Source: Yuukianura sp. NJ FZ-2021
Lineage: Eukaryota
Direction of reading: 5' to 3'
DNA: 64,000 nt
Assembly (NCBI GenBank): GCA_046563655.1
Contig: CM102287.1
Coordinates: 4,030,001 to 4,094,000 of the forward strand
The position numbers and the translations under genes are program-made. Shown piece by piece: positions 6,058 through 64,000 of this stretch (its first letter is position 1; each line of letters starts with the position of its first letter). The notes below the pieces were generated by a model that did no database searches, was not told the origin of the DNA, and saw only the letters and a program-made list of their open reading frames with translations.

Positions 6058-13295
<7,238 letters not shown>

Positions 13296-16849: not shown

Positions 16850-20194
<3,345 letters not shown>

Positions 20195-36728: not shown

Positions 36729-38683
36729 ATGTACACTGTATGCTCCTTGACCGTTTTCCTTCTAGTTTTCAGCGGAAACTACGTTCAGAAGACATACGCC
36801 GCTACAGAGGATCTCCCACCGTGTGAACTAGTAAAAAAATTCATGTACAAGGATTATCGTAAGCTTTTTGTGACCTTTGACCTTTCAACTTTTGACCTTG
36901 ACACCATTTAACTGATCCATTTGGTAGTTTGCCAAGGTCTATTCCAATGCAATCATAACGTAACTCCACCCGTCTGCTGTCCACGGGAGAAACCATGGCT
37001 GGAGGATGGAGGAAACTGTCGCAAAAGCAAAAAGGGAGATCCATGCACAGAATCATGTACACAAATCACACATTTCCAGAAACTGAAGAATTAAGAGATT
37101 AGTTCTAAAAACTAAAAACTAATTTTTTATTGCAATATTTTTGAAGATCATTGTGAAAATGAGGACTGTGACACCTCAATGGGAAGATGTCGTCACCCCC
37201 CGGATGAACAAAAATTCGGTGAAGGCTGTTTCATTGGATGTTCGTTTTCGAAATTTAGTTCTATTTCAAATTTTTTCAAAATTTTGATTTTTTTTCTAAA
37301 TTATGTATAGTTACTTGCGATGTTAAGGAGCATCTGGCATGCACCGAAAAGAGATGTGTCTGCGAAGAAGGATTTGAATGGAACCAGACGGCATGCGTCA
37401 AAAACAGAGTCCCCAAGAAAACGATTACCGCAGGCTGCGAAACGAATAGTATGCTTCAAATTTAAAAAAATAAAATTCAAAATTTTGAGTTTCTCCTGTT
37501 TTTGAAAACTAGAAGACTGCGACAAAAAGCGACAACTGAAATGTATCAACCAAAAATGCGACTGTGAACCAGGCTTTAGTTGGACAGAAGCAATTTGTAA
37601 AGCCAAATCAGAACTGCCAACATGCGATCCATCCGTATTTCGTAAGTTGACCTTTGACCTTGAAAATGAAGTTGGTTTGACCTTTGACCTTTGGTGTTTT
37701 TTTAACATAGCAAACGAGTGTCCACACGATTCGAAGCAAATGGAGTGTGACAAAGATCAGCTCGTTTGTCGCTGTCCCCAGGACATGGAATTTTCTCCAT
37801 CGATGAAGGCGTGTAAACTCAAAGCAGGACAATACTGTGAGTTTAACGGTACACGCGAACATGACCGCTGCGCAAGTCAACAATGTGGTAGCGAGACAGA
37901 CTCCAGCGATAACAACTGCGCATGTCATCACCAGAATGGAATCACACAAATCTGGTCATCAGGCCAAGGTTGTGTCACTGACTACTTTGGCCTTACTTGT
38001 TCAGGTCACTCCTTACACAAACCTTTTCATAAAAAGGGTCTTCTTTTTAAAGTATTTGAATTTTTTAAATTTCAGGATCCCATTCCGAGTGTCGCCTGGC
38101 GACATTTAACACGAATCGTGAAGGGCTCATTTGCAAAGACAACATTTGTCAATGTGATGAAGGTTTGACCTACCTGAGAGGCTACTGCGTCGTAGCTAAC
38201 CTGACGTTCGGCGATCGCTGTGACCCGGGTGGGTGACCTTGACCTTTGACCTCAAATTTCTTTGCATGACCTTTGACCTCGAGTTAGTTTGGATTCATTT
38301 GTACTTTTGTAGAAGGAATTCGACCTACCTGCAAGACAGATGCTGACTTGACTTGTCGAGATGTTGGAGATGGACTTTATGGAGGTGTTGCACTTGCAGA
38401 CTTTAGATGCGCGTGTCTCTTGCGTGAAGTGCCCGTGCGTGGGACAAGACGTACTTTTTTCTTGAACTGGAATGGTACCCAGAAGAAGTGTGGCCTCAAA
38501 TCTCATGGGGAATGGTGCAGGGGAGACTTCGATTGTCGAAGTGGAGCCTGTAAATTCAATTGTATAGGTGAATATCCAGGTGACCGATCGACTGGAGCGA
38601 CAATCTACGTATACGATACGAAAGTCTACAATAACTACGTATTTCTTATAATCCTATTTAGCGTGATTGTCACTCATTTTTAA
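36729..38683 (+). CDS. Cys-rich EB-module-like surface protein, copy 5
   Basis: MYTVCSLTVFLLVFSGNYVQKTYA...; 8 exons; divergent terminal exon with an 8-aa insertion. Confidence 0.85.
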
Positions 38684-38825
38684 TATATTGCACATTTGGA
38701 AAAAGGAGCCCAAAATGCGACAAGAAATCCCAATTAAACACATGTAAAACCTTGTCACTTTTCGAAGTCCTATTCCCCAATGTGTATTGACGGTTGTAAA
38801 TGAACTGTCGTAAACGCCATACGTT

Positions 38826-39034
38826 AGCGAAAGGAAAGTAGAGGAAACAACCCGGAAGTGGTGCACTTCCGGTCAAATCGGAAACGAATTAATCACTCCT
38901 AGCCTATGATACACTCATCTGCCGAAACAGATTGTAGATTGGTCCAGTGGTTTCAAAATTAGATTGACCAGCAGACAGACAGACAGACAGACTCGGGGTA
39001 AAATATAAAGTAGCTCATACTTTCACTATTCGCT
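38826..39034. mobile_element. DINE-1/Helentron-like non-autonomous remnant
   Basis: Imperfect inverted pair agcgaaaggaaagta (38826) / tactttcactattcgct (39018-39034), hairpin ccggaagt-ggtgc-acttccgg (38852-38872) and (CAGA)5 microsatellite (38972-38992). Truncated copies of the left part occur at ~29110-29195 and ~32360-32450. Confidence 0.5.
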
Positions 39035-39211
39035 TCTTTCAACCGAATCGGTTGTGAATGGCAACTTTATGAGTAAAGCTTGTTTTAAAAAACTGCTGAA
39101 CTTTTTTTTTCAAAATCTGACCATAGTGAAAGGGGAGCAAGAAGAGGGAGTGTTTTTTTTTTCGATATTTTTTTTCACAGTTTTTAATCTTAGTAGAGCT
39201 TTTTTTTTGAA

Positions 39212-41162
39212 ATGTACGTTGTTCGGGCCGCGATCGCTTTCATTCTAGTGTTAAGCGGAAACGACGTTCAGATAACATACGCCGCTACAACAGATCTCCC
39301 ACCGTGTATACAATTAAGTAACGGAGAATATCGTAAGCTTTATCGTGACCTCTTTGACCTTTCAACTTTTGACCTTTGACCTTGACACAACTTAAGTGAT
39401 TCATTTGTTAGGTTGTCAAGATATATTCAAATGCAATCATAATGTAAATCCGCCCGTTTGCTGTCCATGGGATACACCACAAGTTACACCCAAGGGAATG
39501 TGCTTCAAAAGCGACGTCGGGCAACCATGTACTTCACCAGGTACATAAATCACAGATTTCCAAAACAAAAAAAAAGTTTAAAGCTTCTTTCAACTTAGAA
39601 ATTGAAAAATACTTTTTTAATTGCAATATTTTTTTCAGATCATTGTATATATGACCGCTGTGACCGAAAAATTTCCCGATGTGATGTCGCCAGGAAGGGA
39701 ACCTACGGTGCTTCCTGCGCCATTGACCGCGGTATTTGAAATTTGGTTCTATTTCAAATTGTTTTAAAATTTTGATTTTTTTTTAAAATTCGGATTAGGT
39801 TCCTGCAATATTAAACAGAGGCTAGTTTGCGTCAGGATGATATGTCGCTGCGAAGCAGGAACAGAATGGAAAAATAAGACATGCGTCAGCATCACGAAAA
39901 GAACGCATAACAGACCATGCATAACAACCGGTTGCATTCAAATTCAAAACTAAAAAAAATTAAAAATTTTGAATTAACTCTTGTTTTTTGAAAAACTAGA
40001 CGACTGCATCACCGAGCGACAACTGAAATGTATCAAGAAAAAATGCGACTGTGAACCAGGCTTTAGTTGGATCGAAGCAATTTGTAAAGCCAACGCAGAA
40101 CAGACAGAATGTGATCCATTCGTATTTCGTAAGTTGACCTTTGACCTTGGAAATTAAGTTGGTTTGACCTTTGACCTTTGGTGTTTTTTTAACATAGCAA
40201 ACGAGTGCCCACACGATTCGAAGCAAATGGAGTGTGACAAGAAGCTGCGCGTTTGTCGCTGTCGCCAGGACATGGAATATTCTCCGTCGATGAAGTCGTG
40301 TAAACTCAAAGCAGGAGAAAACTGTTTGATCAACAACACTTTGGAGCATGACCAATGCTTAAGTCAAAAATGTGGTAACGAAACAGAGTCCACCAATCAA
40401 ACATGCGCATGTCCACAAGACAATGGAATCCCAGCAATCTGGTCACCTGACCCACCAGGGTCATGTGTCACTGACTACTTCGGCTTTACTTGTACAGGTT
40501 ACACCATACACAAATCTTTTCACAAAATGCGGTTTCTTTTTAAAGTATTGGAATTTTTTGAAATTCAGGATCCAATTCCGAATGTCGCTCGGCAAGATTT
40601 AACAAGACTCGTCAAGGCCTCATTTGCAAAGACAACAATTGTAAATGTGCTGAAGGTTTGACCTACATAAGAGGCTACTGCGTCGTAGCTAACCTGACGT
40701 TCGGCGATCGCTGTGACCCGGGTAAGTGGCCTTGACCTTTGACCTCAAATTTCCTTGCCTGACCTTTGACCTGGATTTAGTTTGTATTCATTTGTACTTT
40801 TTGTAGATGGAGTTCGTCCTACTTGCAAGACAGATGCTGACTTGACTTGTCGAGATGTTGGAGGAGGAGACTTTAGATGCGTGTGTCTCCAGCGTGTAAT
40901 GACCGTGCGTGGGAAAAGACATACTGTGTTGTTGACCTGGAATGGTGCCCAGAAGAAGTGTGACCTCAAATCGCATGGTGAACGGTGTAAGGAAGCCATC
41001 GAATGTCGAAGTGGAGTCTGTCAAGAGACATGTGTAGGCGAACAACCCTTGCGTAGCCGACTATCGACTGGGGCGACAATCTATGAATACAATACGAAAA
41101 TCTACGACAACTACTACTTATTTCTTATTATTCCATTTAGCATGATTGTCACACTCTTTTAA
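39212..41162 (+). CDS. Cys-rich EB-module-like surface protein, copy 6
   Basis: MYVVRAAIAFILVLSGNDVQITYA...; same exon series; terminal ORF ends 41162. Confidence 0.85.
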
Positions 41163-41367: not shown

Positions 41368-41960
41368 GCCCGTCTGCTGTCCATGGGAGATTCTAATGCT
41401 GGATGGAGGAGAATGTCGCAAAAGCAAATAAAGATGAACCATGCACTTTGCCAGGTACAGAAATCATACATTTCCAGTTCAAAAAACGTAAAAAAAAATT
41501 TTTTATATACTTAAAAATTGAATAATTACTCTTTTTAATTGAAACATTTTTGAAGTTCACTGTACACTGTAAGACATGCGTCAGAGTCCAGCAGAAAACA
41601 TCAAAATTTTGAATTTGTCGTTTTTTGAAACCAGACGACTGCATCGAAGAAAACGACTAAAGGACCATGCAAAACAAGTGGTGTGTTTTAAATTTCACAA
41701 AATTTTCAAAATTTTGAATTTCTCCTTTTTCGAAAATTTTCTTCCTCCCTACCTGCAAAGCAGATGCTGAGACGTCGCTGACTTGTAGAGATGTTGGAGA
41801 TGGAGATTTTAGATGCTTGTGACTCATGCATGAAATGACAGTGCGTGGGAAATGACATAACGGTGATAGCTACATCGAAAAGATGGAAAATCTGCGTACA
41901 GAATCGGATAACTATGTAGTTTTTTATGTTCCATTTAGCATGATCGTCGCAGTCTTTTAA
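41368..41960 (+). pseudogene. Shattered remnant of an array gene
   Basis: Collinear scraps of exon 2 (gcccgtctgctgtccatgggag), exon 4, the extra exon of copy 9 and the terminal exon, separated by large deletions; no start exon; stops present. Confidence 0.8.
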
Positions 41961-42290
41961 TTTTTTGGTGATAACTGAACAAAAAAATATTTTAAACTTC
42001 GAAATTTAGCTTCTTTCCTTCTACTTTTCTAGTAATTTCAGAAAAAATTGAACTTTTAGAAATACGTTTAGTAGTATTCTATTTACCTTGGTTTCTCCCT
42101 ATATATTCTGCTTCAAAATTTGGTTAGGGGTTGGCCACGTAGTCGCCATGGGGCTACCTTAAACTGATGCAATTGTTTACCACAAACAGTTAAAAGTTCA
42201 AAGCGGATGGAGTGATTTTTTTTTTGAAATTCGAAATTTTTGAGAATAATTTTTTTTTACAATTCCTAGTTTTATTAGATTTTTTTTGAA

Positions 42291-44219
42291 ATGTATGCTG
42301 TTCGCTCCTTGATCGTTTTCATTCTAGTCTTCAGCGGAAACTATGTTCAGAAGACTTTCGCTGCTACAGAGGATCCCCCACCGTGTGAACCAGACAGTGA
42401 AGGGCAATATGGTAAGCTTTTTTATGACTTTTGACCTTTCGACTTTTGACCTTGACACAACTGAATTCATCCGTTTGTTAGGTTGTCAAGGTTTGATTGA
42501 ATGCAAGCCCTTCATCTGCTGTAAACTGGCGGTTCCAAAGCCGGACAGAGGAACATGTCGCTTAAGCTACGACGGGGATCCATGCAAGGAATCAAGTACA
42601 GACATCACACAATTCCAGAAAAAAATGAAAAAACGTTGTTTTTTTTAAATTGGAATTTTTTTTTAATTCCAACACTTTTCAAGATCATTGTACATCCGGT
42701 TCCTGTGACACCAGCAAAGGCCAATGTCGTGGCGGGCATCCACCAAGACTTGGTGATGATTGTGCCAATGAATGTTCGTTTTCGAAATTATGTTCTATTT
42801 CAAATTCTTTCAAAATTTTTTTGATTTTGATTTTTTTTTGTAAATTATGTTTAGTTTCTTGCGATCCTAAGGCTCATATGGTATGCACCAATAGGAAATG
42901 TTCATGCCCAGAAGAATTAGAATGGGACTGGGACGTGACGGCATGCGTCGTCAAAGGAACGAAGAAAACGAAGAAAACGATTAACGCAACCTGCACAGAA
43001 GATGGTAACGTTCAAATTCAAAATTTTTGAAAAAAGTTTTGAATTTTTTGTTTTTTGAAACTAGACGAATGCATCAAAGAGCGGCAACTTAAATGTATCA
43101 ATGAAAAATGCGACTGTGGACTAGGCTTTAGTTGGATCGAAGCAATTTGTAAACCCAATGCACAACAGCCAACATGTGATCCAGCCGTATTTCGTAAGTT
43201 GACCTTTGACCTTGAAAATGAAGTTGGTTTGACCTTTGACCTTTGGTGTTTTTTTAACATAGCAAACGAGTGTCCACATGATTCGAAGCAAATGGAGTGT
43301 GACAAAGATCAGCGCGTTTGTCGCTGTCGCCAGGACATGGAATATTCTCCATCGATGAAGGCGTGTAAACTCAAAGCAGAAGAAAACTGTTTGATCAACA
43401 ACACTTTGGAGCATGACCAATGCTTAAGTCAACAATGTCTTAACGAGACAGGGTCGGCCAATCACACATGCGCATGTAAAGACAACAATGGAATTCCAGA
43501 AATCTGGTCATCTGACCCACCAGGATGTGTCACTGACTACTTTGAGTTTACTTGTTCAGGTCAGTCATACAAATCTTTTCATAAAAAGCGTTTTCTTTTT
43601 AAAGTTATTTGAATTTTTTGAATTTCAGGGTCGGAATCCGAATGTCGCCCGGCGACGTTTAACACGAGTCGTCAAGGCCTCATTTGCAAAGACAGCAGTT
43701 GTAAATGTGCTAAAGGTTTGGCCTACAAGCGAGGCTACTGCGTCGAAGCCAATCGTCTGTTCGACGATCCCTGTGACCCGGGTGAGTGACCTTGACCTTT
43801 GACCTCAAATTCATTTGCATGACCTTTGACCTCGAGTTAGTTTGGATTCATTTGTACTTTTTGTAGATGGAGTTCGTCCTACTTGCAAGGAAGATCTTGA
43901 CTTGACTTGTCGAGATGTTGGAGGAGGAGACTTTAGATGCGTGTGTCTCCAGCGTGTAATGACCGTGCGTGGGAAAAGACATACTGTGTTGTTGACCTGG
44001 AATGGTGCCCAGAAGAAGTGTGACCTCAAATCGCATGGTGAACGGTGTAAGGAAGCCATCGAATGTCGAAGTGGAGTCTGTCAAGTGACATGTGTAGGCG
44101 AACAACCCTTGCGTAGCCGACTATCGACTGGGGCGACAATCTATGAATACCATACGAAAGTCTACCATAACTACGTATTTCTTATTATTTCATTTAGCAT
44201 GATCGTCACACTCTTCTAA
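42291..44219 (+). CDS. Cys-rich EB-module-like surface protein, copy 7
   Basis: MYAVRSLIVFILVFSGNYVQKTFA...; same exon series. Confidence 0.85.
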
Positions 44220-44589: not shown

Positions 44590-46527
44590 ATGTGCGCTGC
44601 TCGTTCCTTGGTCATTTTCATTCTAGTCTCCAGTGGAAACTACGTTCAGAATACATACGCCGCTACAGAGGATCCCCCACCGTGTACCCAAGAAAGTAAC
44701 GGACAATATCGTAAGTTTTTTTTATGACCTTTGACCTTTGACCTTGACACAACTTAAGTGATTCATTTGGCAGGTTGTCAAAGTGTATTCAAATGCAATC
44801 ATAATGTAAATCCGCCCGTTTGCTGTCCACGGGAGACTCCAATGCTGGATGGAGAAAACTGTCGCAAAGGCAAAATGGGGGATCCATGCACTTCACATTG
44901 TACAGAAATCACACATTTCCAGAGAAAAAAATTCTTTAAGAGAGTTTTTCTTAAAAAACTAAAAACTAATCTTTAATTCCAACATTTTTGAAGATCATTG
45001 TATATCTAATGACTGTTACATCGACATACGGCAATGTCATGACATCAGACCAGACCCTTCATCATTCGGGGCTCAATGTGTCACTGACAGTTCGTTTTCA
45101 AAATTTTGTTCTATCAAATTCGTTCAAAATTTTTATTTTTTTTTCATAATTTCTGTATAGGTACTTGCAATACTCAGAAGCGGCTGGCTTGTAGAAATGA
45201 GAAATGTCTCTGCAAAATAAATGGAACAACGTGGAACAAGAAGGAGGGATGCATAAAAGCCCAAAAGAAAACAATAGACGGATCCTGCAAAGCGAATGGT
45301 GTACTTCAAATTTCAAAAAAATAACAATCAAAATTTTGAATTTCTCATTTTTTGAAAATACAGACGACTGCATCGCCGAGCGAAAACTGAAATGTATCAA
45401 TGAAACATGCGGCTGTGAACCAGGCTTTAGTTGGATCGAAGCAATTTGTAAACCCAAAGAAAAACAGACAATATGCGATCCATTCGTATTTCGTAAGTTG
45501 ACCTTTGACCTTGGAAATGAAGTTGGTTTGACCTTTGACCTTTGGTGTTTCTTTTAACGTAAGCAAACGAGTGTCCACATGATTCGAAGCAAATGGAGTG
45601 TGACAAAAATCAACGCGTTTGTCGCTGTCCCCTGGACATGGAATTTTCTCCAGCGATGAGATCGTGTAAACTCAAAGCAGGAGAAAACTGTTTGATCAAT
45701 GGAACACTGGAACACGACCACTGCGCAAGTCAACATTGTCTAGGCAAGACAGAGTCGACCAATCAAATCTGCGCATGCCCACAAAACAATGGAATCCCAG
45801 AGATCTGGTCATCCGAACCAGGTGAACGATGTGTCACTGACTACTACGGCTTTACATGCTCAGGTCACTCCTTACACAAATATTTTCATAAAAAGACGTT
45901 TTCTTTTTAAAGTTATTTCAATTTTTTGAATTTCAGGAGCCGATTATGAATGTCGCTCGGGAACGTTTAACTCTAGTCGCAAAGGCCTCATTTGCAAAGA
46001 CAACAATTGTCAATGTGATGAGGGTTTGACCTACCTTAGAGGCTACTGCGTCGTAGCTAACCTGACGTTCGGCGATCGCTGTGACCCGGGTGAGTGACCT
46101 TGACCTTTGACCTCAAATTAGTTTGCATGACCTTTGACCTGGAGTTAGTTTGGATTCATTTGTACTTTTTGTAGATGGAGTTCGTCCTACTTGCAAGACA
46201 GATGCTGACTTGACTTGTCGCGATGTTGGAGGAGGAGACTTTAGATGCGTGTGTCTCCAGCGTGTAATGACCGTGCGTGGGAAAAGACATACTGTGTTGT
46301 TGACCTGGAATGGTGCTGAGAAGAAGTGTGACCTCAAATCGCATGGTGAACGGTGCAAGGAAGCCATCGAATGTCGAAGTGGAGTCTGTCAGGAGACATG
46401 TGTAGGCGAACAACCCTTGCGTGGCTCACTATCGACTGGGGCGACAATCTATGAATACAATACGAAAGTGTACAATAACTACGTATTTCTTATTATTTCA
46501 TTTACAATGTTAGTCACACTCTTTTAA
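44590..46527 (+). CDS. Cys-rich EB-module-like surface protein, copy 8
   Basis: MCAARSLVIFILVSSGNYVQNTYA...; same exon series. Confidence 0.85.
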
Positions 46528-49656: not shown

Positions 49657-49743
49657 TGGAGGGAGTGATTTTTGTTTGAAATTCGAAATATTTTAGACTA
49701 ATTTTTTGATTCACAATTCATAATTTTATTCCATGTTTTTGAA

Positions 49744-51704
49744 ATGTACGCAGTTGGCTCCTTGATCATTTTCATTCTAGTCTTCAGCGGAAGCTACGTT
49801 CAGAAGACTTCCGCTGCTATACAGAATAGCCCCACGTGTGAACCAAACAGTGAAGGACAACTACGTAAGCTTTTTATGATCTTTGACCTTTCAACTTTTG
49901 ACCTTGGCACAACTGAATTTATCCGTTTGTTAGGTTGTCAAGGTTTGTTCAAATGCGATCATAGTGTAAATCCGCCCGTCTGCTGTGCAGGGGACGCTCC
50001 AATTTTGGACAGAGGATACTGTCGCAAAGGTTACGGCGGGGAACTATGCACAAACTCATGTACAGAAATCACACATTTTCAGATCAAATGAAAAAAAAAG
50101 TTTGTTTTTTTAACTTAAAAATTGCAAAACGTTTTCTTTTTTTTTCTTTTTTTTTATAATTGTAACATTTTGGAAGATCATTGTAAATCCGGCAACTGTG
50201 ACACCAGTCAACGCAAATGTACTGGTCCGAACCCAAATGATGCAAAATTCGGTGCTCCTTGTATCGATGACGGTTCGTTTTCGAAATCTGGTTCTTATTT
50301 CAAATTCTTTCAAAATTTTGATTTTTTTTTGTAAATTATGTGTAGTTACTTGCGATCCTAAGGCGAATCTGGTATGCACCAATAGAAAATGTTCATGCCC
50401 AGAAGAATTAGAATGGGACGTGACGGCATGCGTCGTCAAAGGGACGAAGAAAACGAGGAAAACGATTAACGGAACGTGCACAGCAGATGGTAACCTTCAA
50501 ATTCAAAACTTTTGAAAAAAGTTTTGAATTTTTTGTTTTTTTTTTAAACTAGACGAATGCATCAAAGAGAGACGCCTGAAATGTATCAATGAAACTTGCA
50601 ACTGTGAACCAGGCTTTAGTTGGATCGAAGCAATTTGTAAACCCAAAGAAAAACAGACAACATGTGATCCAGACGTATTTCGTAAGTTGACCTTTGACCT
50701 TAGAAATCAAGTTGTTTGACCTTTGACCTTTGGTGTTTTTTTAACATAGCAAACGAGTGTCCACATGATTCGAAGCAAATGGAGTGTGACAAAGTTCAGA
50801 AAGTTTGTCGCTGTCGCCAGGACATGGAATATTCTCCATCGATGAAGGCGTGTAAACTCAAAGCAGGAGAAAACTGTTTGATCAACAACACTTTGGAGCA
50901 TGACCAATGCTTAAGTCAAAAATGTGGTAACGAAACAGAGTCCACCAATCAAACATGCGCATGTCCACAAGACAATGGAATCCCAGCAATCTGGTCACCT
51001 GACCCACCAGGGTCATGTGTCACTGACTACTTCGGCTTTACTTGTACAGGTTACACCATACACAAATCTTTTCTTAAAATGCGGTTTCTTGTTAAAGTAT
51101 TTGAATGTTTTGAATTTCAGGATCCAATTCCGAATGTCGCCCGGCGACATTTAACACGAGTCGTCAAGGCCTCATTTGCAAAGACAACTTTTGTCATTGC
51201 GAGGAAGGTTTGACCTACCTGAGAGGCTACTGCGTCGTAGCTAACCGGACGTTCGGCGATCCTTGTGACCCGGGTGAGTGACCTTGACCTTTGACCTCAA
51301 ATTCCTTTGCATAACCTTTGACCTCGAGTTAGTTTGCATTCATTTGTACTTTTGTAGATGGATTTCGTCCTACTTGCAAGACTGATGCTGACTTGACTTG
51401 TCGCGATGTTGGAGGAGGAGACTTTAGATGCGTGTGTCTCCAGCGTGTAATGACCGTGCGTGGGAAAAGACATACTGTGTTGTTGACCTGGAATGGTGCC
51501 CAGAAGAAGTGTGACCTCAAATCGCATGGTGAACGGTGTAAGGAAGCCATCGAATGTCGAAGTGGAGTCTGTCAAGTGACATGTGTAGGTGAACAACCCT
51601 TGCGCAGCACACTAGCTACCGACGGGGGCGAAAATCTACGTATACAATATCCTAATTCCGTATTTTTTATTGTTCCATTTAGCATGATCGTCACAGTCTT
51701 TTAA
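49744..51704 (+). CDS. Cys-rich EB-module-like surface protein, copy 10
   Basis: MYAVGSLIIFILVFSGSYVQKTSA...; same exon series. Confidence 0.85.
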
Positions 51705-53923: not shown

Positions 53924-54219
53924 TTTGTTTGGTTTTAACTGAACAAAAAAATTTTAAACTTCGAAATAAGCTTCTTTTCTTCTAATTTCAGAAAAAATTT
54001 GTAGTTTTAAAAATATGTTTCATTCTACTATATATTTTGCTCCAAAGTTTGGTCAATGATCAGTAGTCGCCATGGGACTACCGTAAACTGACGCATTTGT
54101 TTACCACAAACAGTTAAAAGTTCAAAGTGGAGGGAGTGATTTTGTTTTTCGAAATTGGAAATATTTTAGAGTAATTTTTTTTTGATTCACAATTCATAAT
54201 TTTATTCCATTTTTTTGAA

Positions 54220-56164
54220 ATGTACGTTGTTCGCTTCTTGATCATTTTCATTCTAGTAGTCTTCAGCGGAAACTACGTTCAGAAGACTTCCGCTGCTACA
54301 CCGTACACCCCACCGTGTGAACCAAACAGTGAAGGACAATTACGTAAGCTTTTTATGACCTTTGACCTTTGACCTTTGACCGTGGCACAACTGAATTTAT
54401 CCGTTTGTTAGGTTGTCAAAGTGTGTTCGAATGCGATCATAATGTAAATCCGCCCGTCTGCTGTCAAATTGGCCAACCAATTAAGGCCAAAGGAGAATGT
54501 CGCACAGCCTACGCCGAAGAACCATGCACAGAATCATGTACAGAAATCACACATTTTCAGAACAAACAAAAAAAGTTTTTTTTTAACTTAAAAATTGAAA
54601 AAAATGCTTTTTTTTTAATTCCAATATGTTTGAAGATCATTGTGCATCCGGTGACTGTGACACCAGCCAACGCCAATGTCGTGGCGAGAAGCCAAATCTT
54701 TCAACATACGGGGGCCAGTGTATCAATCACTGTTCGTTTTCGAAGTTTGGTTCTTTTTTCAAATTCTTTCAAAATGTTGATTTTTTTTAAATTCTCTATA
54801 GATAATTGCGATGAACAGGATCTGTTCTGCATCAAAAACAAATGTTCATGCCCAGCAGGATTAAAATGGAACCAGACGTCATGCGTCGCCAGAGGCCCGA
54901 AGAAAACGATTAACGAACCCTGCTCAACAGATGGTAACGTTCAAATTCAAAAGTGAAAAATAAATAAAAATTTTGAATTTTTTGTTTTTCGAAAAACTAG
55001 ACGACTGCATCACCGAGCGACAACTGAAATGTATCAACCAAAAATGCGACTGTGACCCAGGCTTTAGTTGGACCGAAGCAATTTGTAAAGCCAAATCAGA
55101 ACTGCCAACATGCGATCCAGACGTATTTCGTAAGTTGACCTTTGACCTTGGAAATGAAGTTGGTTTGACCTTTGACCTTTGGTTTTTTTTTTAACATAGC
55201 AAACGAGTGTCCTCATGATTCGAAGCAAATGGAGTGTGACAAAGATCAGAAAGTTTGTCGCTGTCGCCAGGACATGGAATACTCTCCATCGATGAAGGCG
55301 TGTAAACTCAAAGCAGGAGAAAACTGTTTGATCAACAACACTTTGGAGCATGACCAATGCTTAAGTCAACATTGCGGTAACGATGAGAAAGACTCCACCG
55401 ATCATAACTGCGCATGTCAACACCAGAATGGAATCCCCGAAATCTGGTCACCAGGCACACCAGGCAGTTGTGTCACTAACTACTTCGACTTTACCTGTTC
55501 AGGTCACTCCTTACGCAAACCTTTTCATAAAAGGCGTTTTCTTTATAAAGTATTTGAATTTTTGGAATTTCAGGATCCAATTCCGAATGTCGCCCGGCGA
55601 CATTTAACACGAGTCGTCAAGGGCTCATTTGCAAAAACAACATGTGTAAATGTGAAGAAGGTTTGACCTACATAAGAGGCTACTGCGTCGTAGCTAACCG
55701 GACGTTCGGCGATCCCTGTGACAAGGGTGAGTGACCTTGACCTTTGACCTCAAATTAGTTTGCATGACCTTCGACCTGGATTTAGTTTGTATTCATTTGT
55801 ACTTTTTGTAGATGGAATTAGTCCTACTTGCAAGATAGATGCTGACTTGACTTGTCGAGATGTTGGAGGAGGAGACTTTAGATGCGTGTGTCTCCAGCGT
55901 GTAATGACCGTGCGTGGGAAAAGACATACTGTATTGTTGACCTGGAATGGTTCTCAGAAGAAGTGTGACCTCAAATCGCATGGGGAACGGTGTAAGGAAG
56001 CCATCGAATGTCGAAGTGGAGTCTGTCAAGAGACATGTGTAGGTGAACATCCTGTGCCTATCCGACGATCGACTGGGGCGACAATCTACGCATACGATAC
56101 GAAATTCTACGATAGCTACGTATTTCTTATTATTCCATTTAGCATGATCGTCACACACTCTTAA
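54220..56164 (+). CDS. Cys-rich EB-module-like surface protein, copy 12
   Basis: MYVVRFLIIFILVVFSGNYVQKTSA...; same exon series. Confidence 0.85.
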
Positions 56165-56452
56165 ATTTTTGGTTGTAACTGAACTAAATAATTTTAAACT
56201 TTGAAATTTAGCTTCTTTTCTTCTAATTTCAGAAAAAATTTGAAGTTTTAAAAATACGTTTCTTTCTATATATTTTGCTACAAAATTTGGTTACGAGTTG
56301 GCCGTGTAGTCGCCATGGGACTGCCGTAAACTGACGCAGTTGTTTAGCACAAACAGTTAAAACTTCAAAGTGGATGAGTGATTTTTTTTTAAATTCGAAA
56401 TATTTGAAAGTATTTTTTTTTAAATTCCTAATTTTATTAGATTCTTTTTGAA

Positions 56453-58411
56453 ATGTATGTTGTTCTCTCCTTGATCATTTTCATTCTACTCTTCAGCGGA
56501 AACTACGTTCAGAAGACATACGCCGCTTCCGCTCCAGATATCCCACCGTGTAAAAAAGACAGTGAAGGACAATTACGTAAGCTTTTTATGACCTTTGACC
56601 TTTCAACTTTTGACCTTGGCACAACTGAATTTATTCGTTTGTTAGGTTGTCAAGGTGTGTTCGAATGCAATCATAATGTAAATCCGCCCGTCTGCTGTTC
56701 ATTGGTGGCTCCAATTATAGACGGAGGAGAATGTCGCAAAGCCAACGACGGAGAACCATGCAGAGAAAATTGTACAGAAATCACACATTTTCAGAACAAA
56801 GGAAAAAAAAACTTTTTTTAAGTTAAAAATTGAAAAATGTTTTTTTTAATAATTGTAACATTTTTGAAGATCAATGTCAAGCCGGTTACTGTGGTCCCAC
56901 CAAACATTGTCGTGGCGGGGTCCCATATATTTCACCATACGGTGGTCCCTGTCTCACTAACAGTTCGTTTTCCAAATTTGGTTCTTATTTCAAATTCTTT
57001 CAAAATTTTGATTTTTTTTTGAAAATTCTCTATAGATTATTGCGAGCCTCAGAAACAACTGGTTTGCTTCCAGAAGAAATGTTCCTGCCCAGAAGGATTA
57101 AAATGGAACCAGGAGACATGCTTCATCAGAGGCCCGAAGAAAACGATTAACGAATCCTGCTCAAAAACTGGTAACGTTCAAAGTTAAAACTAAGAAAAAA
57201 AAATAAGAATTTTGAATTTTTCGTTTTTTGAAACTAGAGGAATGCAGCACCCAGCGACTACTGAAATGTATCAACCAAACATGCGACTGTGAACCAGGCT
57301 TTAGTTGGACCGAAGCAATTTGTAAAGCCAAATCAGAACTGACAACATGCGATCCAGACATATTTCGTAAGTTGACCTTTGACCTTGGAAATTAAGTTGG
57401 TTTGACCTTTGACCTTTGGTGTTTTTTAACATAGCAAACGAGTGTCCACATGATTCGAAGCAAATGGAGTGTGACAAAGTTCAGCGCGTTTGTCGCTGTC
57501 GCCAGGACATGGAATATTCTCCATCGATGAAGGCGTGTAAACTCAAAGCAGGAGAAAACTGTTTGATCAACAACACTTTGGAGCATGACCGCTGCGCAAG
57601 TCAACATTGTGGTAACGATGAGAAAGACTCCACCGATCATAACTGCGCATGTCCACACAACAATGGAATCCCGGAAATCTGGTCACCAGGCGCACAGGCA
57701 GGTTGTGTCACTGACTACTTCGAATTTTCCTGTTCAGGTCACTCCTTACACAAATCTTTTCCCAAAAGGCTGTTTCTTTTTAAAGTAATTTGAATTTTTT
57801 GAATTTCAGGATCCGATTCCGAATGTCGCCCGGCAAAATTCAACACTAGTCGTGAAGGGCTTATTTGCAAAGACAACTTTTGTCATTGTGAAAAAGGTTT
57901 GGCCTACCTTAGAGGCTACTGCGTCGTAGCTAACCTGACGTTCGGCGATCGCTGTGACCCGGGTGGGTGACCTTGACCTTTGACCTCAAATTTCTTTGCA
58001 CGACCTTTGACCTCGAGTTACTTTGGATTCATTTGTACGTTTGTAGATGGAGTTCGTCCTACCTGCAAGCCAGATGCTGGTTTGACTTGTCGCGATGTTG
58101 GAGGTGGAGACTTTAGATGCGTGTGTCTCGTGCGTGAAATGACCGTGCGTGGGAAAAGACACACTGTGTTGTTGACCTGGAACGGTGCCGAGAAGACGTG
58201 TGACCTCAAATCGCATGGGGAACGGTGCAAAGAAGCCATCGAATGTCGAAGTGGAGTCTGTCAAGAGACATGTATAGGTGAACAACCCTTCCGTAGCCGA
58301 CTATCGACTGGGGCGACAATCTACCTGTTCAATACGAAAGTTTACAATAACTACGTATTTCTTATTATTTCATTTAACATTACCCTCACACTATTAAATT
58401 TTTGGTGGTAA
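56453..58411 (+). CDS. Cys-rich EB-module-like surface protein, copy 13
   Basis: MYVVLSLIIFILLFSGNYVQKTYA...; same exon series. Confidence 0.85.
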
Positions 58412-58659
58412 CTGAAGAAAAACTTTTTAAACTTCCTTTAGCTTCCTTTTTTTAAAATTTTAGAAAAAAAAAAGAATTTGAAGTGTTGAAAATAAATACA
58501 TGTATCTCCCTGTATATTCTGTTTCAAAATTGTTGAAACGATTGGATTTGAAAAAGATGATTGTGTTGGTGCCAGTCAGTCGTCGTGTGGTTGCTGCTTA
58601 CAATAATAATAAACCGGTTGTAAACCGCATATAATGAAGATAGCTCAGCGATAAGGCGT

Positions 58660-58850
58660 TGGAGGGGGGGGGGGTCTCCCGGGGGGTGCGGGGGTGAGCT
58701 CCCCCCGGGGTTGTAGGGGTAGGTTCCCACGGGTGTGCGGGGGTGGGATTCTCCCAGGGGTGTGGGATGTGTCCCTCTATGGGTGTGTGGGGCGGGTCCC
58801 CCAGGGGTGTGGGGTGGGTCCCCCAGGGGTGTGGGCGTGTGTTCCCCCCA
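58660..58850 (+). repeat. G-rich degenerate minisatellite (~21-23-nt unit CCCCAGGGGTGTGGGGTGGGT, ~8 units) within a ~470-bp foreign insert
   Basis: Visible directly; strongly GC-rich against the AT-rich background; repeated at ~61945-62135. Confidence 0.8.
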
Positions 58851-59159
58851 CTTCTCCGCTGGCAGGACGTTGAAATGAAAAAAGAAGTTGACCTTTGACC
58901 AAGAACAAGGCCACTTGGGGTAATGTGATGGACACAAAAGTTGTTGGACTCGATGAGACGAACAACTTGTGTAGAAGTCATTTTCCATGTTGCCGGGGCT
59001 GAAACCGGTTGACCTTGACCTTTGACCCAGAAGGAGTTTAGCCACCGGGATCATATTCAATAGTGATCATGTCACAGTCTTTTAATTTTTTGTGGTTACT
59101 AACTGAACATAAAAATTTTCAAGTTCGAAATCTTAGCTTCTTTTTTTCTAATTTCAGAA

Positions 59160-59452
59160 TTTTTTTTAACTAATCGTAAGTACTATAAAATTATATTTAT
59201 TAATAGAAAAACAGTTTCATGATACTTATGGGCTAAAGGTAGTATACTCCGTATAAATCTTCGCCGGGTGGAAGAGTTCCTAAGATGAAGGCACAATTTC
59301 CTGTTTGAATGCCAATGCTGATTGTTGGTAGCAGAAAAGCAGTGGCTCTTGGTTCTCCAGTGTATTCAACAAGGCGTCGACTTCAGTAGCTTCAACCCTT
59401 CGTTTCCGAAAACTCCAGTAGATTCAACAGCGATGATTAAAACGATGAAGTG
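59160..59452 (-). mobile_element. 5'-truncated non-LTR retrotransposon (CRE-like clade, C-terminal restriction-like endonuclease region)
   Basis: Minus strand reads IAVESTGVFGNEGLKLLK/(frameshift)RRLVEYTGEPRATAFLLPTISIGIQTGNCAFILGTLPPGEDLYGVYYL*, then AATAAA and an A-run; TSD ATTTCAGAA at 59151-59159 and 59453-59461. Confidence 0.75.
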
Positions 59453-59757
59453 ATTTCAGAAATTTTTTTGGAGTTAGGTTAGGTTAGGCAGGTTGAGAGA
59501 TTTAAGAAATGTCGTTAATGATTAAAGCATGTAGATTTCGTAGAGTTCTTTTTTTTTTTTGCTTCAAAATTTGATTAGGGGTTGGCCGCGTAGTCGCCAT
59601 GGGACTACCTTAAACCGACGCATTTGTGTACCACAAACAGTGAAAAGTCAAGAAGGAGGGAGTGATTTTTTTTTGTTTTTTTGAAAATAGAAATTTTTGA
59701 AAGTAAATTTTTTTTTCAATTCCTAATTTTATTAGAATTTTATTCCATGTTTTTGAA

Positions 59758-61682
59758 ATGTACGCTGTTCGCTCCTTGATCGTTTTCATTCTAGTCTTCA
59801 GCGGAAGCTACATTGAGAAGACTTCCGCTGCTACAGAGGATCCCCCACCTTGTGAACCAGACAGTGAAGGGCAATATGGTAAGCTTTTTTATGACTTTTG
59901 ACCTTTCGACTTTTGACCTTGACACAACTGAATTCATCCGTTTGTTAGGTTGTCAAGGTTTGATTGAATGCAAGCCCTTCATCTGCTGTAAACTGGCGGT
60001 TCCGAAGCCGGACAGAGGAACATGTCGCTTAAGCTACGACGGGGATCCATGCAAGGAATCAAGTACAGACATCACACAATTCCAGAAAAAAATGAAACAA
60101 CGTTTCTTTTTTAAATTGCAATTTTTTTTTAATTCCAACACTTTTCAAGATCATTGTACATCCGGTTTCTGTGACACCAGCAAAGGCCAATGTCGTGGCG
60201 GGTATCCACCAAGACTTGGTGATGATTGTGCCAATGAATGTTCGTTTTTGAAATTATGTTCTATTTCAAATTCTTTGAAAATTTTGATTTTTTTTTGTAA
60301 ATTATGTATAGTTGCTTGCGATCCTAAGGCGCATATGGTATGCACCAATAGGAAATGTTCATGCCCAGAAGAATTAGAATGGGACAGGGACGTGACGGCA
60401 TGCGTCGTCAAAGGAACGAAGAAAACGAAGAAAACGATTAACGCAACCTGCACAGAAGATGGTAACGTTCAAATTCAAAATTTTTGAAAAAAGTTTTGAA
60501 TTTTTTGTTTTTTGAAACTAGACGAATGCATCAAAGAGCGACTACTGAAATGTTACAATGGAACATGCGACTGTGAACCAGGCTTTAGTTGGATCGAAGC
60601 AATTTGTAAACCCGTAGCAGAACAGACAAAATGCGATCCAAACACATTTCGTAAGTTGACCTTTGACCTTGAGAATGAAGTTGGTTTGACCTTTGACCTT
60701 TGGTGTTTTTAACATAGCAAACGAGTGTCCTCATGATTCGAAGCAAATGGAGTGTGACAAAGTTCAGAAAGTTTGTCGCTGTCGCCAGGACATGGAATAT
60801 TCTCCATCGATGAAGGCGTGTAAACTCAAAGCAGGAGAGAACTGTTTGATCAACGGTACACTGGAGCATGACCAATGCTTAAGTCAACAATGTGGTAACA
60901 ATGAGAAAGAGTCCACCGATCATAACTGCGCATGCCACAACCAGAATGGAATCCCGGAAATCTGGTCATCAGGCACACCAGGCAGTTGTGTCACTAACTA
61001 CTTCGACTTTACCTGTTCAGGTCACTCCTTACGCAAACCTTTTCATAAAAAGCTTTTTCTTTTTAAAGTATTTGAATTTTTGGAATTTCAGGATCCAATT
61101 CCGAATGTCGCCCGGAGACATTTAACACGAGTCGTCAAGGGCTCATTTGCAAAAACAACATGTGTAAATGTGAAGAAGGTTTGACCTACATAAGAGGCTA
61201 CTGCGTCGTAGCTAACCGGACGTTCGGCGATCCCTGTGACAAGGGTGAGTGACCTTGACCTTTGACCTCAACTTTCTTTGCATGACCTTCGACCTGGATT
61301 TAGTTTGTATTCATTTGTACTTTTTGTAGATGGAATTAGTCCTACTTGCAAGATAGATGCTGACTTGACTTGTCGCGATGTTGGAGGAGGAGACTTTAGA
61401 TGCGTGTGTCTCCAGCGTGTAATGACCGTGCGTGGGAAAAGACATACTGTATTGTTGACCTGGAATGGTGCCCAGAAGAAGTGTGACCTCAAATCGCATG
61501 GTGAACGGTGTAAGGAAGCCATCGAATGTCGAAGTGGAGTCTGTCAAGAGACATGTGTAGGCGAACAACCCGTGCCAATCCGACGATCGACTGGGACGAC
61601 AATCTACGTATACGATACAAAAGTCTACGCTAACTACATATTTCTTATCATTTCATTTAACATGATCCTCACACTCTATTAA
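59758..61682 (+). CDS. Cys-rich EB-module-like surface protein, copy 14 (chimera of copy-7-like 5' half and copy-12-like 3' half)
   Basis: MYAVRSLIVFILVFSGSYIEKTSA...; same exon series. Confidence 0.85.
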
Positions 61683-61944
61683 ATTTTTGGTGGTAACTGA
61701 AGAAAAACTTTTTAAACTTCCTTTTAGCTTCCTTTTTTTTTAAATTTTAGAAAAAAAAAGAATTTGAAGTGTTGAAAATAAATACAGTGTATCTCCCTGT
61801 ATATTCTGTTTCAAAATTGTTGAAACGATTGGATTTGAAAAAGATGATTGTGTTGGTGCCAGTCAGTCGTCGTGTGGTTGCTGGTTACAATAATAATAAA
61901 CCGGTTCTAAACCGCATATAATGAAGATAGCTCAGCGATAAGGC

Positions 61945-62135
61945 GTTGGAGGGGGGGGGTCTCCCGGGGGGTGCGGGGGTGAGTTCCCCCCGGGGTTGTA
62001 GAGGTAGGTTCCCACGGGTGTGCGGGGGTGGAATTCTCCCAGGGGTGTGGGATGTATCCCTCTATGTGTTCGTGGGGCGGGTCCCCCAGGCGTGTGGGGT
62101 GGGTCCCCCGGGGGTGTGGGCGTGTGTTCCCCCAC
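61945..62135 (+). repeat. Second copy of the G-rich minisatellite insert
   Basis: Near-identical to 58660-58850; part of a ~1.1-kb duplicated spacer. Confidence 0.8.
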
Positions 62136-62442
62136 TTCTCCGCTGGCAGGACGTTGAAATGAAAAAGAAGTTGACCTTTGACCAAGAACGAGGTCACTTG
62201 GGGTAATGTGATGGACACAAAAGTTGTTGGACTCGATGAGACGAACAACTTTTGTAGAAGTCATTTTCCATGTTGCCGGGGCTGAAACCGGTTGACCTTG
62301 ACCTTTGACCCAGAAGGAGTTTAGCCACCGGGATCATATTCAATAGTGATCATGTCACAGTCTTTTAATTTTTTGTGGTTACTAACTGAACATAAAAATT
62401 TTCAAGTTCGAAATCTTAGCTTCTTTTTTTCTAATTTCAGAA

Positions 62443-62736
62443 TTTTTTTTTAACTAATCGTAAGTACTATAAAATTATATTTATTAATAGAAAAACAGTT
62501 TCATGATACTTATGGGCTAAAGGTAGTATACTCCGTATAAATCTTCGCCGGGTGGAAGAGTTCCTAAGATGAAGGCACAATTTCCTGTTTGAATGCCAAT
62601 GCTGATTGTTGGTAGCAGAAAAGCAGTGGCTCTTGGTTCTCCAGTGTATTCAACAAGGCGTCGACTTCAGTAGCTTCAACCCTTCGTTTCCGAAAACTCC
62701 AGTAGATTCAACAGCTATGATTGAAACGATGAAGTG
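62443..62736 (-). mobile_element. Second (co-duplicated) copy of the truncated CRE-like non-LTR fragment
   Basis: Near-identical to 59160-59452 with the same TSD ATTTCAGAA (62434-62442, 62737-62745). Confidence 0.75.
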
Positions 62737-62993
62737 ATTTCAGAAAATTTTTTGGAGTTTTAAAAATACGTTTTTTTATTATTTTGCTTCAAAATTTGAT
62801 TAGGGGTTGGCCGCGTAGTCGCCATGGATGGGACTACCGTAAACCGACGCATTTGTGTACCACAAACAGTGAAAAGTCAAAAAGGAGCAGGAGGGAGTGA
62901 TTTTTTTGTTTTTTTTTGAAAATAGAAATTTTTGAAAGTAAATTTTTTTTTTCAATTCCTAATTTTATTAGAGTTTTATTCCATGTTTTTGAA

Positions 62994-64000
62994 ATGTACG
63001 CTGTTCGCTCCGTGATCATTTTCATTCTAGTCTTCAGCGGAAACTACGTTCAGAAGACTTCCGCTGCTGAAGAGGATCTCCCACCGTGTGTAAAAGACAG
63101 TGAAGGACAAGATCGTAAGCTTCTTTATGACTTTTGACCTTTCGACTTTTGACCTGGCACAACTGAATTCATCCGTTTGGTAGGTTGTCAAAGTGTGTTC
63201 AAATGCAATGATAAGGTAAAACCGCCCGTCTGCTGTCCATGGAACGCTCCAATTATGAGCGAAGGAAAGTGTCGCGCAGGCCTCGGCGGCGTGGATCCAT
63301 GCACGGAACCAAGTACAGAAATCACACATTTTCAGAACAAACAAAAAAAAGTGTTTTTTAACTTAAAAATAGTTTTTTTTTTAAATTGAAAAAATGTTTA
63401 ATTGTAAGAATATAAATATTCTTTTTTTAATAATTGTAACATTTTTGAAGATCATTGTATATCCGGTGACTGTGACACCAGCCAAGGCGAATGTCGTGGC
63501 GGGAGACCAAATCTCTCAACATACGGGGGCCATTGTATCAATAAAAGTTCGTATTCGAAATTTGATTCTATTTCAAATTATTTCAAAATTTTGATTTTCT
63601 TTTTAAATTCTGTATAGATAATTGCGATCCTAAGGAACTGGTCTGCACCAATACCAAATGTTCATGCCCAGCAGGATTAAAATGGAACCAGACGGCATGC
63701 GTTGCCAGAGGCCCGACGAAAACGATTAACGAACCCTGCTCAACGGATGGTAACGTTCAAATTCAAAACTAAAAAATAGAAATTTTTTTGAATTTTTTGC
63801 TTTTTGAAAAACTAGACGACTGCATCACCGAGCGACAGCTGAAATGTATCAACCAAAAATGCGACTGTGACCCAGGCTTTAGTTGGACCGAAGCAATTTG
63901 TAAAGCCAAATCAGAACTGCCAACATGCGATCCAGACGTATTTCGTAAGTTGACCTTTGACCTTGGAAATTAAGTTGGTTTGACCTTTGACCTTTGGTGT
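62994..64000 (+). CDS. Cys-rich EB-module-like surface protein, copy 15 (exons 1-5, cut by the window end)
   Basis: MYAVRSVIIFILVFSGNYVQKTSA...; the window ends in intron 5. Confidence 0.8.

Follow-up and report, generated by a model that had tools for sequence, protein, structure and literature searches.

A tandem animal gene family with probable diversification of its N-terminal modules and homogenisation of its C-terminal modules

A cluster of cysteine-rich genes in Yuukianura sp. NJ FZ-2021 is probably a tandem animal multigene family in which N-terminal modules diversify and constant C-terminal modules are homogenised. It lies in a 64,000-nucleotide stretch of contig CM102287.1 (assembly GCA_046563655.1), hereafter the window. 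The encoded proteins, about 470 aa long, would form a rod of EGF/EB-like six-cysteine modules, one per phase-1 exon. In exons 2-4 and the end of exon 1, selection would keep the scaffold cysteines and let roughly a third of the loop codons be replaced faster than synonymous sites; in-frame indels would likewise accumulate in the three N-terminal modules, as expected of diversifying selection among paralogues. Exons 5-8 would be under purifying selection (omega.4-.6) and, together with several introns, would be kept alike by recurrent gene conversion or unequal crossing-over among members. The same exchange would move entire 5' and 3' halves, as well as individual exons, from gene to gene.

Organisation of the array

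Positions 36729-64000 hold, head-to-tail on the + strand, ten complete genes and one cut-off gene built on the same 8-exon plan. The array runs beyond the window, so that eleven is a minimum. Introns are in phase 1 without exception, and the lengths of all 64 internal exons are multiples of 3. Splice donors are GT in 74 of 75 cases and GC in the remaining one; acceptors are AG in 74 of 74. The complete genes encode 465-478 aa with 50-51 Cys in intact ORFs, and inspection by eye suggests for each protein an N-terminus resembling a signal peptide and a hydrophobic stretch at the C-terminal end.

36729..38683, +, gene g1: 8 exons, 478 aa, 51 Cys; exon 2 at 36928-37056, exon 8 at 38313-38683
39212..41162, +, gene g2: 8 exons, 469 aa; GC donor after exon 3
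41407..41975, +, gene fragment, probably a remnant: pieces of exons 2, 4 and 8
42291..44219, +, gene g3: 468 aa; 5' half almost identical to that of g10
44590..46527, +, gene g4: 471 aa
46889..49009, +, gene g5: 465 aa in the 8-exon reading
49744..51704, +, gene g6: 471 aa
51987..53923, +, gene g7: 468 aa
54220..56164, +, gene g8, reference model: 471 aa, 50 Cys
54220-54343, 54412-54537, 54636-54731, 54802-54933, +, exons 1-4 of g8
55001-55129, 55200-55502, 55574-55726, 55812-56164, +, exons 5-8 of g8
56453..58411, +, gene g9: 475 aa
59758..61682, +, gene g10: 470 aa; mosaic with a g3-like 5' half and a g8-like 3' half
62994..64000, +, gene g11: exons 1-5 only, cut by the window end

An additional in-frame six-Cys module exon is present in g5 at 47670-47798 and would yield a 9-exon, 508-aa form.

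Upstream, at about 25.0-35.7 kb, lies an older and more divergent sub-array whose exon plan is the same as that of g1-g11.

25001..35714, +, older sub-array: o1-o4 plus two fragments
about 25001-26706, +, o1
26967-29081, +, o2; exon 6 with in-frame stops
29259-29765, +, first fragment
about 30211-32324, +, o3
32497-32643, +, second fragment
33571-35714, +, o4

The array might be a product of misassembly, or consist of dead copies, and its pattern would then have no biological meaning; in favour of this, public short-read contigs are fragmented over the stretch. Against it, each of the 10 complete copies keeps an open frame of 465-478 codons, canonical splice sites and 50-51 cysteines despite 12-35% nucleotide divergence, omega is significantly below 1 in exons 6-8 (see below), and parts of the stretch are present in DNA runs from two studies. 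We regard an artefact or dead copies as scarcely credible. Contigs of two DNA runs aligned to 49700-58500 were short and cross-mapped between paralogues. Minus-strand ORFs in the array spacers gave no Pfam match.

Module type and predicted anchoring

The pattern C-x-C-x2-[GP]-[aromatic]-x4-8-C is the PROSITE EGF_2 signature. When it was loosened to allow L and x4-9, it matched 35 times, always on the + strand and always inside the array (25.4-64 kb). An alignment of the modules of exons 4, 5 and 7 shows invariant Cys and a near-invariant Gly, and the six-cysteine signature of the EGF-like superfamily is thus present. Exon-wise profile scans, in which modules span exon junctions, gave cEGF (PF12662) at E.005 and 17.1 bits against a cut-off of 26.6, and hEGF at E.15. 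The EB profile (PF01683) matched three of seven exon translations, at best with 18.6, 15.3 and 15.0 bits, below its gathering cut-off of 24.3; these matches cover only the C-terminal half of the profile, and scanning by exon weakens the test. The nearest neighbours in a protein atlas, taken as leads only, were arthropod EB-module clusters (.89-.91). Arthropod and nematode EB/EGF-like extracellular proteins resemble the array proteins in their six-cysteine modules, the CxCxxG[FLY] motif and the layout of one module per phase-1 exon, but differ in that no exon translation here reaches the Pfam cut-off. To our knowledge, EB proteins have not been described as hypervariable arrays, and our literature search found no EB-module family with a description of selection, tandem arrangement or GPI anchoring.

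Searches of two large protein libraries and the PDB found no sequence relatives of the array proteins; in the PDB, the module and exon-8 profiles had no match below E.6. A word-index search of a protein library likewise found no longer proteins with exon 8 or exon 6. HMMER comparison of the exon-8 profile with 1.84 billion representatives returned three matches, which we rejected as chance 'VRGKRHTVLLTWNG' matches: two carry RCC1 repeats and the third has only stray partial matches. The AF2 model of the 43-aa exon-4 module reached pLDDT 81.5; Foldseek found no match to it at E <=.001, nor VIA at Z >= 2. The model of exon 8 (pLDDT 43) was unusable.

Exon 1, as judged by eye, opens on a basic residue, after which comes a hydrophobic core of 10-12 residues, and exon 8 ends with a conserved S-T-G, a polar spacer and about 14-15 hydrophobic residues. 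The proteins are probably secreted and GPI- or tail-anchored, and from this orientation we infer that the variable modules lie farthest from the membrane. The terms 'ligand-binding tip' and 'membrane-proximal', used in a preliminary description of this DNA, are suppositions drawn from the signal-peptide-like start and the hydrophobic tail. One may speculate that the variable modules bind something that itself changes fast: the surface of a pathogen or symbiont, a ligand of a parasite, or a partner in mating or self-recognition. If its proteins are expressed on a surface, the array would be a candidate invertebrate recognition or arms-race locus, whose products might serve in immunity as receptors, be targets to which pathogens attach, or act in mating or self-recognition.

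Variability falls along the gene

The preliminary description reported hypervariable exons 2-3, a near-invariant exon 8 and conserved flanking introns. All seven exon-2 peptides that it quoted were found on the + strand where it had placed them, one of them common to g3 and g10. With three more loop variants at 44821, 47131 and 63231, the 11 genes carry 10 distinct exon-2 loops, so the loop does differ in almost every copy. Likewise, the quoted 34-residue core of the terminal exon occurs exactly eight times, and its DNA differs on average by 1.0 per 102 bases among the 8 copies. The quoted start of intron 2 was found at 12 sites with <=3 mismatches, four of them exact (0.00 expected from 100 shuffles).

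36975, 39459, 42517 (g3), 49981, 52227, 54459, 56693, 59984 (g10), +, the seven quoted exon-2 peptides
54412..54933, +, variable block of g8: exons 2-4 with introns 2-3
54538..54557, +, quoted conserved start of intron 2 in g8
55850..55951, +, near-invariant exon-8 core of g8, 102 nt

Mean pairwise nucleotide distances are.19,.28,.35,.29,.135,.134,.13 and.123 for exons 1-8, and.136,.22,.134,.166,.03,.125 and.077 for introns 1-7. At the protein level the distances are.46-.57 for exons 2-4 against.20-.22 for exons 6-8. Hypervariability of exons 2-3 is real, but it is not restricted to them: it extends through exon 4 and also takes in the end of exon 1. The variable/constant arrangement is a real layout. 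In the variable exons these tandem paralogues differ more than in the introns alongside: exon 2 exceeds both of its flanking introns in 42 of 55 gene pairs, and exons 3 and 4 do so in 51 of 55 each. Exons 5, 6 and 7 exceed both neighbours in only 19, 26 and 24 of 45 pairs. No indel in the variable exons breaks the reading frame, and the cysteine scaffold is kept in these exons, with one Cys displaced in exon 4 of g4.

Codon models support diversifying selection on exons 2-4

Likelihood tests were run on per-exon trees with an in-house implementation rather than codeml or HyPhy. Under M0, omega for exons 2, 3 and 4 is 1.10, 1.39 and 1.37 (p.65,.18 and.12 against 1). Exons 6, 7 and 8 have values of.42,.50 and.56, the only ones significantly below 1. 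In exons 2-4 whole-exon omega is thus about 1 and does not significantly exceed it, yet site models strongly favour a class with omega > 1. In exons 2-4 M2a surpasses M1a with 2dlnL 51.4 (p 7e-12), placing 38% of codons at omega 3.1; the M7/M8 and M8a/M8 comparisons give 53.0 and 50.8, and M1a/M2a with full branch optimisation gives 53.6. Each exon alone also prefers M2a (16.9 for exon 2, 25.3 for exon 3, 18.6 for exon 4). A posterior probability of at least.95 for omega > 1 marks 20 codons in exons 2-4 (127 aligned) and one in exons 6-8 (281); six of the seven such sites in exon 2 lie inside the two inter-cysteine loops quoted in the preliminary description. Diversifying selection on exons 2-4 is supported by these codon site models.

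The same exons might be under no adaptive diversification at all, their constraint being relaxed outside the scaffold and their sequence escaping conversion, while conversion keeps the 3' half alike, so that the site signal would be an artefact of recombination, alignment or saturation. Such an account fits the exon-wide omega of about 1 and the close, independent paralogue pairs, where pN/pS is.89 and 76 of 99 changes are non-synonymous (.79 expected, p.54), indistinguishable from neutrality. It also fits the divergence at 4-fold sites,.266 in exons 2-4 against.142, which is about 1.9 times higher in the 5' half. Intragenic recombination inflates codon site tests, and recombination is demonstrated here (see below). 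The exon trees are 5-7.7 substitutions per codon long, and gamma rate variation halved the test statistic, to 25.8 (p 2.5e-6) for exons 2-4, and made the class estimates unstable. Yet M2a stays ahead under that rate variation, with six half-exon trees (49.3) and with gap-free columns (46.9), and only one of 27 null simulation replicates exceeded 5.99, the maximum being 6.05. By NG86, dN is 3-4 times higher in exons 2-4 than in exons 6-8, against 1.2-2 times for dS. The in-frame indels and the retained cysteine scaffold also speak against mere relaxation, which we consider an unlikely explanation, though one to be taken seriously.

The preliminary description had held that dN/dS at or below 1 in exons 2-3, with synonymous divergence equally raised, would mean merely less gene conversion at the 5' end. 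Read literally, half of this was found, since omega over whole exons lies near 1 and does not significantly exceed that value. Because synonymous divergence is raised in exons 2-4, part of the contrast along the gene does reflect less homogenisation at the 5' end. The description had also argued for diversifying selection from coding sequence diverging faster than the neighbouring intron; the site models support such selection, but the argument as put is unsound, in part because the introns are themselves constrained or preferentially homogenised and offer no neutral comparison.

A mutational process aimed at exons 2-4 (hypermutation or error-prone repair), raising silent and replacement change alike, with selection only purging scaffold breakers, would account for synonymous and 4-fold divergence there (.266) being higher than that of the introns between them (.13-.22). 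Such a process would have to skip these less-diverged introns of 70-100 nt between the variable exons, and no repeat or motif was seen marking the exons. Moreover, an omega > 1 class is still needed when sites may be fast in both types of change. We judge targeted mutation very improbable.

Paralogues exchange sequence

Trees of the 5' and 3' blocks reject each other (deltaL 336 and 173; AU p 2e-82 and 2e-49). The trees of the two halves being incompatible, paralogues must have exchanged sequence. The pair g3 and g10 illustrates this mosaicism, with a distance of 0-.06 from exon 1 to intron 4 and of.13-.17 in exons 5-7. Synonymous distance has valleys at intron 5 and at intron 7/exon-8 core. 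Exon 8 is indeed near-invariant, but not by protein-level constraint alone: its synonymous sites are near-invariant as well, so concerted evolution or DNA-level constraint contributes. Together the incongruent trees, the mosaic pairs and the exon-8 core DNA indicate that exchange between paralogues homogenises the constant parts. Spacers can be alike as well: those downstream of g9 and g10 share 84-99% identity in seven matched blocks (93-99% in the four longest), and the genes adjoining them are far more diverged.

58418..59764, +, spacer after g9; its counterpart is the spacer after g10, 61704-63000

Conserved introns carry a repeated 12-mer

Introns 1, 5 and 7 contain conserved TGACCTTTGACC repeats on the sense strand.

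55130..55199, +, intron 5 of g8: two TGACCTTTGACC copies; mean pairwise distance.03 among 10 genes
55727..55811, +, intron 7 of g8: two motif copies

Between the old and young sub-arrays intron 7 is 92% identical, against 77-82% for its flanking exons. The array is a clean case of an intron more conserved than the adjoining coding exons across old paralogues; it is a warning not to take introns as the neutral standard, and suggests that they hold an element so far unrecognised. A mirtron, snoRNA or other structured RNA was rejected as the cause of this conservation: Rfam gave 0 matches across the whole window, and the predicted folds of introns 1, 5 and 7 are no more stable than those of shuffled sequences (z +1.05 to +2.35).

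The conserved introns with paired TGACCTTTGACC might be functional joints of a variable-tip/constant-stalk receptor system undescribed in invertebrates, which strikes us as a doubtful proposal. On one version, they would be preferred starts of gene conversion or unequal crossing-over, and variable-module exons would be swapped as cassettes, giving germline combinatorial diversification of a surface receptor. On the other, they would be shared intronic control elements of nuclear-receptor type (direct repeat, one-base spacing) that co-regulate all copies while the tips diverge.

Relation to known systems

The evolutionary pattern of diversifying selection combined with concerted evolution in tandem families is already known, and the array adds to it. 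Our literature search on conserved introns with hypervariability and gene conversion found only other systems. In vertebrate MHC genes (peptide-binding exons), cone-snail toxin genes and snake-venom PLA2 genes, exons are diverse and flanking introns homogenised; diversifying selection acts on coding loops, the selected exons have raised synonymous divergence, and recombination or conversion keeps introns and constant parts alike. Their protein folds and biology are unrelated to those of the array, where the genes compared are tandem paralogues of a single haplotype.

Chen et al. (2010, PMC2955719) describe positive selection with concerted homogenisation of non-coding parts in the tandem SSSGP families of the Hessian fly. 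As described there, the SSSGP paralogues are likewise in tandem, within about 15-30 kb, and likewise set a diversified coding part beside conserved non-coding parts, intron included. A codon class with omega > 1 is found in the array too, with exon-wide omega about 1. The SSSGPs are small secreted salivary effectors whose whole mature peptide varies (PMC2955719), unlike the modular, apparently anchored proteins of about 470 aa predicted here. Only three N-terminal modules vary in the array, five exons making up a constant stalk, and its intron conservation is tied to the repeated 12-mer. This would amount to a division of labour between a diversifying tip and a stalk held constant together with the introns.

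Tandem eight-exon genes and their neighbours

The window holds animal DNA with short GT-AG introns, and the genes beside the array, listed below, show it to be metazoan. Starting near 25.0 kb and running as far as the window reaches, related units of 2.2-3.3 kb each lie head-to-tail on the + strand. One unit was read by eye as an eight-exon gene, and its borders were then projected onto the remaining units. The reference unit has 8 exons, all introns in phase 1, and a coding sequence of 1416 nt encoding 471 aa with 50 cysteines. Projection yielded ten complete genes (g1-g10) and one truncated by the window end (g11), forming the younger sub-array. Splice donors were GT in 74/75 cases and GC in one, acceptors were AG in 74/74, all 64 internal exon lengths were divisible by three, and frames were open in 10/10 complete genes (465-478 aa, 50-51 Cys).

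Features outside the younger genes
6061-13217, minus strand: synaptotagmin-like/rabphilin-like gene, upstream of the array
12942-13217, minus strand: FYVE_2 of this gene
7872-12332, minus strand: 1487-codon disordered exon of this gene
6061-6824, minus strand: two C2 exons of this gene
18302-18640, minus strand: protein-kinase exon
25001-35714, plus strand: older sub-array o1-o4, exon plan as in the young genes
41407-41975, 29259-29765 and 32497-32643: partial gene copies between complete genes, made up of parts of exons 2, 4 and 8 or of parts of exons 7-8

Within the older sub-array, exons 3-5 of o2, o3 and o4 resemble one another far more closely than those of the young genes do. In o2, an insertion in exon 6 brings two in-frame stops, pointing to either a pseudogene or an additional intron.

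By eye, exon 1 resembles a signal peptide. The six-cysteine modules encoded by exons 4, 5 and 7 are homologous and share the signature CxCxxG[FLY]. Searching the window with an EGF-type pattern, a loosened version of the PROSITE pattern, gave 35 matches, all on the + strand and all within the array. Pfam scans, run on single exon translations, returned EB/cEGF matches below threshold only. The nearest protein-atlas clusters to exons 6 and 8 were arthropod EB-module clusters (.89-.91), to be taken as leads only. In exon 8, again by eye, a conserved S-T-G is followed by a polar spacer and then by a terminal run of ~14-15 hydrophobic residues, consistent with a putative GPI signal or tail anchor. 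No relatives were found in the protein libraries searched, but these appear to cover the lineage thinly, since the gene next to the array drew only two matches. HMMER matches of exon 8 to bacterial RCC1-repeat proteins were spurious, reflecting chance resemblance and not homology; they were drawn by profile positions some of which fall in the invariant core (55850-55951).

A variable block of three exons

The preliminary description had set hypervariable exons 2-3 against a near-invariant exon 8 and conserved introns, and had taken this to suggest diversifying selection. All the exon-2 peptides it quoted are present in the sequence; one occurs in both g3 and g10, thus the 11 genes carry 10 distinct exon-2 loops. 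Eight genes carry the exon-8 core without a single change, and the quoted intron-2 start has 12 matching sites where none is expected. Amino-acid distance, exon by exon from 1 to 8, was.33,.46,.57,.51,.27,.21,.22 and.20, showing that the variable block is exons 2-4. Hypervariability therefore holds for exons 2-3 but is not limited to them, since exon 4 and the end of exon 1 vary too. Cysteines are invariant except in exon 4 of g4, where one is displaced, and every length change in the variable exons keeps the reading frame. Exon divergence exceeded that of both flanking introns in 42/55 (exon 2), 51/55 (exon 3) and 51/55 (exon 4) pairs; for exons 5, 6 and 7 this held in only 19/45, 26/45 and 24/45.

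Site models support selection that exon averages do not show

Pooled Nei-Gojobori dN/dS was.92 for exon 2, 1.17 for exon 3 and 1.16 for exon 4, against.45-.55 across exons 6-8. Codon likelihoods, computed with our own maximum-likelihood code on one IQ-TREE tree per exon, gave M0 omega values of 1.15, 1.10, 1.39, 1.37, 1.08,.42,.50 and.56 for exons 1-8, significantly different from 1 only in exons 6-8. Among close independent pairs, pN/pS was.89 in exons 2-4 (76/99 changes were replacements, p.54 vs neutral) and.42 in exons 6-8 (p 9e-7). Thus, as averages, the variable exons look neutral and not positively selected.

Site models of exons 2-4 favored M2a over M1a (2dlnL 51.4, p 7e-12), with omega classes of.10 (21% of codons), 1 (42%) and 3.1 (38%). 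The statistic was 53.0 for M7/M8, 50.8 for M8a/M8, 53.6 with all branch lengths freed, 46.9 with gapped columns removed, and 49.3 with six half-exon trees, which served as a conservative control for recombination. Single exons gave 16.9 (exon 2), 25.3 (exon 3) and 18.6 (exon 4). Gamma rate variation, which lets one site be fast in silent and replacement change alike, left 25.8 (p 2.5e-6) and shifted the class estimates. Null data generated under M1a with these trees gave a statistic above 5.99 in 1/27 replicates (maximum 6.05). Exons 6-8 showed a small class of 4.4% of codons (2dlnL 13.1). Posterior support of at least.95 for omega > 1 was reached by 20/127 codons in exons 2-4 vs 1/281 in exons 6-8, and 6/7 such sites in exon 2 fall within the two loops initially quoted. 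Diversifying selection on exons 2-4 is thus supported by the site models and their variants, although exon-average omega is not significantly above 1.

Mosaic genes and uneven homogenisation

Four-fold sites diverge by.266 in exons 2-4 vs.142 in exons 5-8, indicating that the contrast stems partly from older coalescence, that is, less homogenisation, at the 5' end. Were this the whole explanation, omega at or below 1 would, according to the preliminary description, go with equally raised silent divergence. An omega near 1 and raised silent divergence are indeed seen, but dN is up 3-4 times in the variable exons and dS only 1.2-2 times (NG86; 1.9 times at four-fold sites), thus replacement and silent divergence are not equally elevated.

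The family genes are mosaics. Genes g3 and g10 differ by 0-.06 from exon 1 through intron 4 and by.13-.17 in exons 5-7; further matches join g10 to g8 in exons 6-8, g8 to g11 in exons 3-5, and g6 to g3/g10 only around exon 4. Trees of the front (5') and rear (3') halves of the genes were mutually rejected (deltaL 336 and 173, AU p 2e-82 and 2e-49). The exon-8 core averages 1.0 difference per 102 nt of DNA across 8 copies, and there are two troughs in silent divergence, one near intron 5 and the other near intron 7 and this core. Concerted evolution or DNA-level constraint therefore adds to the constant part.

The partial gene copies are probably leftovers of unequal crossing-over. Intron 4 of g5 harbors an extra in-frame 129-nt six-Cys module (47670-47798) bounded by AG/GT, with which g5 would have 9 exons and a 508 aa protein. 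The module is a chimera, starting like exon 5 and ending like exon 4. Module number would thus vary through unequal exchange. The spacers after g9 (58418-59764) and g10 (61704-63000) share seven blocks of 84-99% identity, with 93-99% in the four longest, whereas the adjoining genes are 12-37% different. Minus-strand ORFs of 133-180 codons in these spacers had no match in a Pfam search.

The closest documented case found is that of the Hessian fly SSSGP families. In these tandem genes the coding parts are diversified and the introns conserved, which was attributed to positive selection combined with concerted homogenisation (PMC2955719), an evolutionary pattern common to SSSGP and the array. 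In contrast, the array proteins are long, modular and apparently anchored, and only the three N-terminal modules diversify. We read the array as a real and probably functional gene family of the recognition type, its tip variable and its stalk constant. The original reading stands in substance, but constrained introns and gene conversion confound the exon-against-intron comparison from which it was drawn.

Conserved introns carry a repeated motif

The family introns do not behave as neutral sequence. Across 10 genes, the distance in intron 5 is only.03. Comparing old with young sub-array copies, identity is 92.3% for intron 7, vs 76.8% for exon 7 and 81.7% for exon 8 (40 pairs).

Intron 7 and the motif
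55727-55811: intron 7 of g8; counterparts at 26300-26373, 28672-28755, 31914-31998 and 35294-35378
24915-63992, plus strand: span of TGACCTTTGACC; examples at 55136-55147, 55166-55177 and 55738-55749

The motif, a TGACCTT heptamer repeat, occurs 87 times at no more than one mismatch (70 exact;.47 expected), 84/87 on the + (sense) strand and 82/87 at or beyond 24915. It is almost confined to introns 1, 5 and 7, with two copies in intron 5 (11/11 genes), two in intron 7 (10/10) and one to three in intron 1, and is also kept in the old sub-array. Motif-bearing introns had no match in Rfam and fold worse than shuffled sequences. Read on the opposite strand, the motif forms two AGGTCA-type half-sites with a one-base gap, the layout of nuclear-receptor elements of the direct-repeat-1 type. 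Among the papers listed as containing the 12-mer, most are PPAR/RXR studies. The motif may act as an enhancer, and could equally be a splicing signal or a favored recombination site. Each long spacer, after g9 and after g10, carries two further copies.
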